Shown piece by piece: positions 31,321 to 34,300 of a stretch of DNA of 64,000 nt (the first letter of the stretch is position 1; every line of letters begins with the position of its first letter). Position numbers: made by a program. The stretch lies in NCBI RefSeq assembly GCF_988243305.1, contig NZ_OZ547136.1, one strand, 5' to 3'.

Positions 31321-34300
31321 TTATCCTTTTACGCACACCACCTGACGCAGGGTGTAGATAACTTCCACCAGATCGCTTTGTGCCGCCATCACCGCATCAA
31401 TATCTTTATACGCCATCGGGATTTCGTCGATCACTTCGGCATCTTTACGGCATTCCACATGCGCGGTGGCACGAATTTGATCTTCCACGCTGAACAGTTT
31501 TTTCGCTTTGGTACGGCTCATAACCCGCCCGGCACCGTGGCTGCACGAACAGAACGACTCTTCATTTCCCAGCCCACGGACGATAAAGCTTTTCGCTCCC
31601 ATCGACCCTGGAATAATTCCATATTGACCCGCACGCGCAGACACCGCGCCTTTACGCGTCACGTAGATCTCTTCACCAAAGTGCTGTTCTTTTTGCACAT
31701 AGTTGTGGTGACAGTTGATCTCTTCCATCGCCAGCGTTTGTGGCTGTCTTACCGTTTTCTGCGTAACGCTCTGCAACGCCGTTACCACGTTTTCCATCAT
31801 CGCATCGCGGTTAAGGCTGGCAAAAAGCTGCGCCCAGGCCACGGCTTTCAGGTAATCATCAAAGTATTCCGTACCTTCCATAAAGTACGCCAGATCACGC
31901 GACGGCAATGTTTCAAGCGTTTCCTGCATCTCTTTTTGCGCCAGATCGATAAAGTAAGTTCCGATGGCATTACCGATTCCGCGTGAACCGGAGTGCAGCA
32001 TAATCCACACCTGGTCCGACTCATCAAGGCAGATTTCAATAAAGTGGTTACCCGTTCCCAGCGTTCCCAGGTGTTTATAGTTGTTAGTGTTAAGGAAACG
32101 GGGATATTTTTGCGTTAACCACTGATAACCGGCTTCCAGCTCAGCCCATTTCGCATCGACGTTAACAGGCGGATTTTCCCATGCGCCTTTATCACGTTTA
32201 CAACGTCCGGTAGTACGCCCGTGCGGCACGGCAGTTTCAATCGCCTGACGCAGTTCTGCCAGGTTTTCAGGCAGGTCAGCCGCCGTTAACGCGGTGCGCA
32301 GCGCGTTCATTCCACAACCGATATCCACGCCCACCGCCGCCGGAATAATCGCCCCTTTGGTTGGGATCACGCTACCAATGGTGGAACCTTTACCCAGGTG
32401 TACATCAGGCATTACCGCAATATGTTTGAAAATAAACGGCATCTTCGCCGTATTAATAAGTTGCTGACGCGCATCGGCCTCTACCGGCACGCCTTTGGTC
32501 CACATTTTTACCGGGGCATTTTCAGTGGTCAGTAATTCGTAATTCATTTTGTTTTTCTCTTTTCGTTGTTTGCTGTCCTGATAATTGCAACCGTCGTGCC
32601 AGAAAATTAAATAAGCAGATTAATTTTTTAATTTATTGTTTCTAAAAAGATTATATCTTTACGTCCGTAAACGGAGATTTCCCGCAAAGCCAATTTACCG
32701 ATAATGAAATATCGTCTTTTATAAGGATATCTAAGATGCGTAAAACAGTGGCTTTTGGCTTTGTCGGTACCGTGCTGGATTATGCCGGACGCGGCAGTCA
32801 GCGCTGGTCAAAATGGCGTCCGACACTCTGTTTATGCCAGCAAGAATCGTTGGTCATCGATCGACTGGAATTATTGCATGACGCCCGCTCGCGCTCGCTA
32901 TTTGAAACGCTTAAACGCGATATCGCCAGCGTTTCGCCAGAAACAGAAGTGGTGAGCGTTGAGATTGAACTGCATAACCCGTGGGATTTCGAAGAGGTTT
33001 ACGCCTGCCTGCATGATTTCGCCCGTGGTTACGCGTTCCAGCCAGAAAAAGAAGACTATTTAATTCACATCACCACCGGTACCCACGTCGCGCAGATTTG
33101 CTGGTTTCTGCTGGCAGAAGCGCGTTATCTACCCGCCCGGTTGATACAATCTTCACCACCGCGCAAAAAAGAACAACCGCGCGGCGCAGGTGAAGTGACG
33201 ATTATCGATCTCGATTTAAGCCGTTATAACGCCATCGCCAGCCGCTTTGCCGAGGAACGCCAGCAAACCCTCGATTTCCTCAAATCCGGCATTGCCACGC
33301 GTAACCCCCACTTCAACCGCATGATTGAGCAGATCGAAAAAGTGGCGATTAAATCCCGCGCACCGATCCTGCTTAACGGCCCAACCGGTGCGGGCAAGTC
33401 GTTTCTGGCACGACGCATCTTCGAATTAAAACAGGCGCGGCATCAGTTTAGCGGCGCGTTTGTGGAAGTGAACTGCGCCACCCTGCGCGGCGATACCGCC
33501 ATGTCGACGCTGTTTGGTCATGTGAAAGGCGCGTTCACCGGGGCGCGGGAGTCGCGGGAAGGATTATTACGCAGCGCCAACGGTGGAATGTTGTTTCTTG
33601 ATGAGATTGGCGAACTGGGCGCAGACGAACAGGCGATGTTGCTGAAAGCCATTGAAGAGAAAACCTTTTACCCGTTTGGCAGCGATCGCCAGGTGAGCAG
33701 TGATTTTCAGCTGATCGCCGGAACGGTGCGCGATTTGCGTCAGTTGGTTGCCGAAGGCAAATTTCGCGAAGACCTGTACGCACGCATTAATCTCTGGACC
33801 TTCACCCTGCCGGGGCTGCGCCAGCGCCAGGAAGATATCGAACCGAACCTGGATTATGAAGTGGAGCGCCACGCCGCGCTTACTGGCGACAGCGTGCGTT
33901 TTAACACCGAAGCACGGCGCGCCTGGCTGGCTTTTGCGACATCTCCCCAGGCAACATGGCGCGGTAACTTTCGAGAACTTTCTGCCAGCGTCACGCGGAT
34001 GGCAACCTTTGCCGATAGCGGGCGCATTACTCTGGAAACCGTAGAAGATGAGATAAACCGTCTGCGCTATAACTGGCAGGAGAGTCGCCCCTCCGCGCTT
34101 CCGGCGTTGCTGGGCGCTGAGGCAGAAAACATCGACCTCTTTGATCGACTGCAACTGGAACACGTAATAGCCATCTGCCGCCAGGCAAAGTCACTTTCTG
34201 CTGCCGGACGCCAGCTTTTTGACGTTTCGCGCCAGGGCAAAGCCAGCGTCAATGACGCGGATCGGCTACGCAAATACCTGGCGCGTTTTGGTCTGACGTG

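Follow-up and report, generated by a model that had tools for sequence, protein, structure and literature searches.

The rtcBA operon is preceded by a -24/-12 element identical to the sigma-54 promoter of Escherichia coli K-12

Results

The -24/-12 element upstream of rtcB

The stretch of DNA analysed here, 64,000 nucleotides of contig NZ_OZ547136.1 (RefSeq assembly GCF_988243305.1), which we call the window, contains an element that is very probably the sigma-54 (RpoN) dependent promoter of rtcBA, rtcBp, identical to that of E. coli K-12. The promoter is already known: the locus is a known one, it is the same as in the reference strain, and nothing is new about the promoter itself. The original paper on the sigma-54/RtcR-dependent promoter of E. 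coli rtcBA and its start site is reportedly that of Genschik et al. from 1998. The element lies in the intergenic region between rtcB and the divergent activator gene rtcR:

32586 to 32602, minus strand: sigma-54 -24/-12 element of rtcBA, CTGGCACGACGGTTGCA, assigned from the exact core match, identity with a mapped K-12 site (OS35), the position weight matrix (PWM) and conservation

The motif TGGCACGACGGTTGCAA had been placed at 32585-32601 by the initial annotation, which did not give its strand. It occurs once in the 64-kb window, at these positions and on the minus strand. The same annotation had described it as matching the consensus at every conserved position, and this is correct, since the GG and the GC lie one helical turn apart within TGGCAC-N5-TTGCW, to which TGGCACGACGGTTGCA is an exact match. 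Taking 32575 as +1, the GG corresponds to 32600-32599 (-25/-24) and the GC to 32588-32587 (-13/-12). The spacer between them is G/C-rich. The element is intergenic and has the orientation of rtcB; from its 3' end to the rtcB ATG (32547) there are 37 nt, in keeping with the earlier estimate of about 40 bp, and 134 bp separate its 5' end from the ATG of the divergent rtcR (32736).

How much weight can such a match carry? The strict TGGCAC-N5-TTGCW core has one exact match in the 64 kb, both strands counted. Shuffled sequences with preserved dinucleotide composition contained 0.11 matches on average, and at least one match was found in 11 of 100 shuffles, so the exact core match by itself is moderately unlikely by chance. 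When two mismatches were allowed, the number of matches was at chance level (46 against 43.8 expected). We also scanned both strands with a PWM constructed from the 134 sigma-54 ChIP-seq sites that Bonocora et al. 2015 list in their Tables 1 and 2, with the rtcB site left out. The rtcB site was the best 17-mer of the window with 15.5 bits and would be 36th among 135 sites; this score, however, is not distinctive, because 22 of 40 random Markov-1 sequences of 64 kb attained it. We have therefore rejected the PWM score as stand-alone evidence and rely instead on the exact core, on its context and on conservation. The PSSM score published for the rtcB site is 11.16, which is mid-range in tables where the scores span about 4.5 to 14.1 (Bonocora et al. 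2015). The native promoter was reported to have very weak activity in vitro, and its -24/-12 element was swapped for that of nifH by the authors who reported this (PMC9650030). The earlier description of the promoter as a textbook one thus suits the core positions, which are all consensus, but not the composition of the spacer, the mid-range score or the weakness in vitro.

Identity with the K-12 promoter, start site and leader

Read from 32602 to 32586, CTGGCACGACGGTTGCA is letter for letter the MG1655 sigma-54 ChIP-seq site OS35, which Bonocora et al. 2015 assigned to rtcB with a fold-above-threshold of 17 and a distance of 28, and which carries in their study the flag "C" for experimentally confirmed in EcoCyc. 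The 71 nt upstream of the rtcB ATG, which comprise the promoter and the leader, are 100% identical to K-12; the same stretch recurs with 100% identity in 2165 complete E. coli genomes, and it is present in 4713 of 5426. There are five intergenic substitutions relative to K-12, all of them farther upstream at 32618-32670, and they leave the -24/-12 element, the leader and a CGATA-N6-TATCG palindrome, which is described below, untouched. Common to the window and K-12 rtcBp are the 17-mer and the +1 predicted from it, a leader of 28 nt in which the MazF ACA site is present, the intergenic length of 188 bp and the divergent orientation of rtcR, whereas they differ in the five upstream substitutions and in the coding regions, which have diverged by 3-5.6% at the nucleotide level. 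In K-12, a 175-nt fragment upstream of rtcB suffices for RtcR-dependent reporter activity (Engl et al. 2016, PMC5175333).

The start of transcription and the leader are predicted as follows:

32576 and 32575, minus strand: predicted transcription start, with A at -1 and C at +1, from the 19-bp rule and the ApC primer
32548 to 32575, minus strand: rtcB leader of 28 nt, CAGCAAACAACGAAAAGAGAAAAACAAA, from K-12 identity and the distance of 28 in Table 1 of Bonocora et al.

By the rule that Bonocora et al. 2015 applied, +1 lies downstream of the centre of the motif, here 32594, at a distance of 19 bp. Kotta-Loizou et al. 2022 (PMC9650030) initiated transcription from the native PrtcBA in vitro with ApC at -1/+1 and labelled ATP, and the A-C-A at 32576-32574 of the window agrees with this primer and nucleotide. 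The agreement is a second line for the start site, though not a fully independent one, and the prediction rule and the primer design together point to C32575 as the probable +1 in this strain. The initial annotation had named an inconsistent mapped start as the result that would speak against it; the predicted +1 agrees with both the published 28-nt distance and ApC, and no such inconsistency was found. At 32552-32550, and so at 2 nt from the rtcB AUG, the leader also keeps a MazF ACA site; a MazF site near this AUG has been described by Temmel et al. (PMC5416887).

The rtc genes

The identities of the three genes around the promoter and the divergence of rtcR, as annotated initially, were borne out by protein family matches:

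30301 to 31317, minus strand: rtcA, RNA 3'-terminal phosphate cyclase, 338 aa, full length (NF003247 equivalog, 774 bits)
31321 to 32547, minus strand: rtcB, RNA ligase, 408 aa, full length (PF01139, 447 bits)
32736 to 34334, plus strand: rtcR, sigma-54 enhancer-binding activator, 532 aa (NF038308 equivalog, 852 bits; PF06956 and PF00158)

All three reading frames have the lengths found in K-12 and no internal stops. RtcB differs from its K-12 counterpart by two amino acids and keeps C78, H185, H281 and H337, while RtcA, in which PF01137 occurs with PF05189, differs by eleven and keeps H308; H337 of RtcB and H308 of RtcA were mutated as catalytic residues by Engl et al. 2016 (PMC5175333). In RtcR, an AAA+ domain is accompanied by an RtcR/CARF domain at the N-terminus and an HTH region at the C-terminus. 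The protein carries nine amino acid differences from K-12 and has the Walker A motif GPTGAGKS at 215, GAFTGA at 265, the only such motif in the window, and Walker B at 285. RtcB and RtcA share an operon, the divergent rtcR encodes the RtcR/CARF N-terminal domain, and the gene order malT, rtcA, rtcB, rtcR, glpR is that annotated in the K-12 strain C600. The closest complete E. coli genome is 98.1-98.8% identical, and the NCBI assembly GCA_050004735.1 shows a single nucleotide difference over 5.6 kb. We agree with the initial annotation that the operon is intact, but on account of the reading frame lengths, the lack of internal stops and the retained catalytic residues; the promoter motif, from which it had argued, cannot confirm this alone.

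An Rfam search of the rtc region returned no RNA family match, Y RNA included. Among complete E. coli genomes the promoter region was matched in 4857 of 5426, and one genome without it has lost malT, rtcA and rtcB, together with the 5' end of rtcR, through an IS1-associated deletion. No RpoN box was found in any frame of the window. As the window does not include rpoN, we infer, on good grounds, that sigma-54 controls the operon in this strain, and the initial annotation went too far in saying that the motif confirms it.

Conservation of the promoter

A search for RtcR in species-representative genomes gave 29 loci, of which 26 were usable. At 20 of these 26 the best sigma-54 PWM match near rtcR is on the divergent strand and exceeds 11 bits, and the distance from the -24/-12 element to the rtcR start is 127-197 bp, mostly 127-161 bp. 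The 20 loci belong to Gamma- and Betaproteobacteria, Verrucomicrobia, Calditrichia and Desulfobacterota; the spacing of 127-161 bp holds for loci of Klebsiella, Pseudomonas, Verrucomicrobia and Desulfobacterota. The elements compared include:

Four other Escherichia species: the 17-mer is identical
Klebsiella oxytoca: CTGGCACGCAGGTTGCA
Intestinirhabdus: CTGGCACGGCGGTTGCA
Superficieibacter: CTGGCACGCCAGTTGCA
Iodobacter: GTGGCACGGCGCTTGCA
Pseudomonas: CTGGCACGCCTCTCGCT
Verrucomicrobia: TTGGCACGGCACTAGCA
Desulfobulbus: ATGGCATGTTTTCTGCT

The GG and GC blocks are held across the loci and the spacer is free to change. A varying spacer between fixed GG and GC is the signature that would be expected of a functional -24/-12 element.

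The homologous site in Salmonella, TGGCACGCTGGTTGCAAT, upstream of rsr, is bound by sigma-54 and is sigma-54 dependent in reporters. This promoter of Salmonella Typhimurium, rsrp, which serves rsr-yrlBA-rtcBA, resembles the one in the window in its core, where only the spacer has changed, in the divergent rtcR and in its activation by RtcR. The two differ in what follows: the Salmonella operon starts with rsr and Y RNAs, whereas in the window the promoter leads directly to rtcB with no Y RNA.

A candidate RtcR enhancer and IHF-like sites

We aligned the intergenic regions of ten taxa in the orientation in which rtcB reads. Besides the -24/-12 element, the sole other block conserved from Escherichia to Superficieibacter was TATAAA-N3-CGATA-N6-TATCG, part of which is also present in Iodobacter. 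It includes the following palindrome:

32699 to 32714, no strand assigned: CGATA-N6-TATCG, candidate enhancer (UAS) for RtcR that may also be an rtcR auto-operator, from cross-species alignment

The centre of the palindrome is at -131.5 from the rtcB +1, and it lies 22-37 nt upstream of the rtcR ATG. Its arms are invariant in Escherichia, Klebsiella oxytoca, Intestinirhabdus and Superficieibacter, with TTTCAT, TTTAAT, AATAAT and ATTTAT as variants of the 6-nt spacer, and the intergenic sequence around the palindrome has diverged. When all palindromic 4-mer dyads were counted without bias, GATA-N6-TATC came out as the top one, with 5 of 15 non-redundant loci. This count was attained for the same dyad in none of 300 shuffles, and any dyad reached five in 0.7% of shuffles, figures which overstate independence because the four enteric loci are related. 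Pseudomonas and Accumulibacter loci carry related GATA/TATC-N6 dyads between -130 and -165; the dyad of opposite polarity, TATC-N6-GATA, lies there at -152 to -165. A generic repeat finder returned from the intergenic region only the A/T-rich palindromes adjoining the -24 element; CGATA-N6-TATCG surfaced only in the cross-species alignment.

Could this palindrome be the site from which RtcR acts? The UAS of sigma-54 promoters is typically about 80-150 bp upstream. A 2016 review gives the RtcR site as "NK". PMC9650030 speaks of an "rtc UAS" and of an "rtc IHF binding site" but prints the sequence of neither; its supplements name the hybrid promoter plasmid. We did not find CGATA-N6-TATCG described in the rtc literature surveyed, which leaves aside the original 1998 paper and one cited thesis. 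Our tentative assignment of the palindrome as the RtcR enhancer stands at about an even chance, or slightly below. Its position would allow both activation of rtcBA from -131 and repression of rtcR, as in autoregulation of the pspF kind; alternatively it could be an element of the rtcR promoter or an operator for another factor. Two other inverted repeats considered as UAS, TCCGT-AA-ACGGA (32664-32675) and AAAGAT-TAT-ATCTTT (32646-32660), were ranked below it, their conservation being limited to Escherichia or less.

The tract between the palindrome and the promoter is A/T-rich. The following further features were recorded in the intergenic region:

32621 to 32633, minus strand: second, overlapping IHF candidate, AATTAAAAAATTA, centred at -52, a one-mismatch core
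32629 to 32641, minus strand: putative IHF-like core, AAACAATAAATTA, centred at -60, one mismatch to WATCAANNNNTTR
32672 to 32691, plus strand: AtoC ChIP-positive 20-mer, CGGAGATTTCCCGCAAAGCC, unchanged in the window

All six Escherichia sequences keep the core AAACAATAAATTA. Of the 15 non-redundant rtcR loci, 5 have a perfect IHF core, WATCAANNNNTTR, always in the same orientation and between -50 and -62; shuffles gave a mean of 0.34 loci, and five loci were reached in none of 500. An IHF site that bends the DNA between enhancer and sigma-54 promoter is common, though not universal. The AtoC 20-mer is known from the K-12 rtcB-rtcR intergenic region (PMC3118216), and this block is conserved within Escherichia only. 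A sigma-70 consensus scan of 32400-32900 gave no site, and the promoter of rtcR itself was not found there; by eye we saw only a poor TTTACC-N17-TTTTAT or TATAAG.

Discussion

The dependence of the promoter on its cognate activator, RtcR, has been shown functionally only in K-12 (PMC5175333) and in Salmonella. In the established model, a closed complex of sigma-54 polymerase is opened with ATP by enhancer-bound RtcR after a signal of RNA damage has relieved its CARF domain (PMC9650030, PMC5175333). Applied to the window, this model would mean that RNA polymerase-sigma-54 forms a closed complex on the minus-strand GG(-24)/GC(-12) element, at 32600-32587, and that RtcR, encoded divergently 134 bp away, binds an enhancer, which would most likely be CGATA-N6-TATCG at -131. 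A signal of RNA damage would relieve the CARF domain and let an RtcR oligomer form, an IHF-type bend in the A/T-rich tract around -60 would bring this oligomer to the polymerase, and ATP hydrolysis acting through the GAFTGA loop would open the promoter. Transcription would then proceed from C32575 through the 28-nt leader into rtcB and rtcA. We infer the identities of the enhancer and of the IHF site from the sequence comparisons, and nothing seen in the sequence contradicts the reading of the element as a sigma-54 promoter.

Could the motif nevertheless be a chance match, or a site that sigma-54 binds without productive transcription, as at many intragenic sites in E. coli, so that rtcBA would not be driven from it? 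Matches at the level of the PWM are frequent by chance, most sigma-54 ChIP-seq sites were silent under the conditions tested (Bonocora et al. 2015), and the weakness of the native promoter in vitro (PMC9650030) would fit such a site. Against this, the exact core is single in the window, and the motif lies between genes, points in the right direction at 28 nt from rtcB, by the measure of the predicted start, and is beside a dedicated activator gene. Its sequence is moreover that of the experimentally confirmed promoter (OS35), its position is conserved across phyla, and the K-12 fragment showed RtcR-dependent reporter activity (PMC5175333). We therefore consider it extremely improbable that the motif has no part in rtcBA transcription.

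It is also conceivable that the promoter is intact and that rtcBA is nonetheless silent in this strain, or expressed mainly without RtcR and sigma-54, as a result of a defect in rpoN or ihf, of the substitutions in RtcR or of an alternative promoter. The position of rpoN outside the window, the nine RtcR substitutions, the five changes in the upstream intergenic region and the presence of IS elements nearby in the lineage leave room for this, and both RtcR-independent induction of rtcBA and alternative promoters have been suggested in PMC9650030. However, the functional motifs of RtcR are all intact, the five intergenic changes spare the -24/-12 element, the leader and the conserved palindrome, and the sigma-70 consensus scan revealed no site in 32400-32900. 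The same rtc allele is also widespread, being found in 226 index blocks of public assemblies, which argues that the locus is not decaying. Silence or independence of this kind appears very unlikely to us, and a sigma-54 promoter of the K-12 type remains the reading that we adopt for the element.

In bEBP/sigma-54 systems of the pspF-pspA type, the UAS is followed by an IHF site and then by the -24/-12 element. The rtc region would correspond to this architecture in having the activator gene divergent from the target promoter and an IHF-like A/T-rich site between candidate enhancer and promoter. The candidate enhancer also overlaps the 5' region of the activator gene, which would make autoregulation possible as it is in the pspF-pspA type. 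The rtc region differs in that it shows one clear palindrome and not two UAS sites.

What our analysis adds to the knowledge of this promoter is small and concerns its architecture across phyla, with the constant spacing of 127-161 bp from the rtcR start to the -24 element, the IHF core at about -60 and the candidate RtcR enhancer. Tolerance of antibiotics that target the ribosome, and of RNA damage mediated by toxins, has been linked to the Rtc system. The genome from which the window comes keeps a complete and regulatable Rtc module for RNA repair, which is missing through loss from about 11% of complete E. coli genomes.

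Conserved elements between rtcB and rtcR

Several parts of the rtcB–rtcR intergenic region, in addition to the -24/-12 element, are of interest:

32621-32641, minus strand: IHF-like cores, at -60 and -52
32664-32675: palindrome TCCGTAAACGGA
32672-32691, plus strand: AtoC 20-mer CGGAGATTTCCCGCAAAGCC
32699-32714: palindrome CGATA-N6-TATCG, centred at -131.5 relative to the rtcB start and lying just 5' of the rtcR ATG

Among enteric genera, the palindrome closest to rtcR equals the -24/-12 element in its degree of conservation: the arms do not vary, but the spacer does. It is a candidate RtcR enhancer or auto-operator that none of the papers available to us defines. 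At the position equivalent to the IHF-like cores, the rtcR loci of Superficieibacter, Iodobacter, Accumulibacter and Pseudomonas (L024, L007, L008 and L009-L011) hold a perfect IHF consensus. The 20-mer for which in vivo AtoC binding has been reported in K-12 (PMC3118216) is unchanged in the window. It overlaps a block whose conservation is confined to Escherichia, and the palindrome TCCGTAAACGGA adjoins this block.

Other features of the window

Two more K-12 sigma-54 ChIP-seq sites are unchanged in the window, and a third strong match to the sigma-54 weight matrix was also observed:

15277-15293, plus strand: ChIP-seq site IS42 GTGGCACTGAACATGCT, intragenic, feoB
52211-52227, minus strand: ChIP-seq site IS43 AAGGCATGTTTTATGCA, intragenic, glgA
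29876-29892, minus strand: weight-matrix match CTGGCGCAGTTGTTGCG, antisense within malT

The malT match is not among the published high-stringency sigma-54 sites.

Between the glp genes and glgP, about 10 kb (~38400-48400) have no K-12 counterpart. This stretch is a chaperone-usher fimbrial cluster, which matches some E. coli genomes at 99.6-99.8% identity over 75% of the query and appears to be broken by IS10 and an IS3-family element. An Rfam match to the sRNA ES036 (CssrF) was found as well, at 43.6 bits, only slightly higher than the gathering score of 37.6.

38073-38115, minus strand: ES036 (CssrF) match
43375-43444: RNA-OUT of IS10
43437-44654: transposase ORF of IS10
45352-45468: ALIL frameshift pseudoknot of the IS3-family element

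The rtc locus in other genomes

Even the best of 5426 complete E. coli genomes shares only 98.1-98.8% identity with the window, and the rtc genes (30301-34334) diverge from those of K-12 by 3-5.6% at the nucleotide level. Across 5.6 kb, a single nucleotide separates the NCBI assembly GCA_050004735.1 from the window. The lineage may be Shigella or a divergent E. coli group. The rtcBA promoter region is absent from ~11% of complete E. coli genomes. Strain NRZ100600 has lost malT, rtcA, rtcB and the 5' part of rtcR, and an IS1 occupies that place. In the GTDB representative E. coli contig (L030), all that is left of rtcR is its final ~33 codons.

The layout of the operon also varies. Two Desulfobacterota loci (L018, L019) have the gene order rtcA then rtcB. 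In Intestinirhabdus, Superficieibacter and Pseudomonas (L006, L024, L009-L011), rtcB lies ~1.7-2 kb 3' of the sigma-54 element, so that other genes precede it in the operon, an arrangement which resembles Salmonella rsr-yrlBA-rtcBA in having genes ahead of rtcB.
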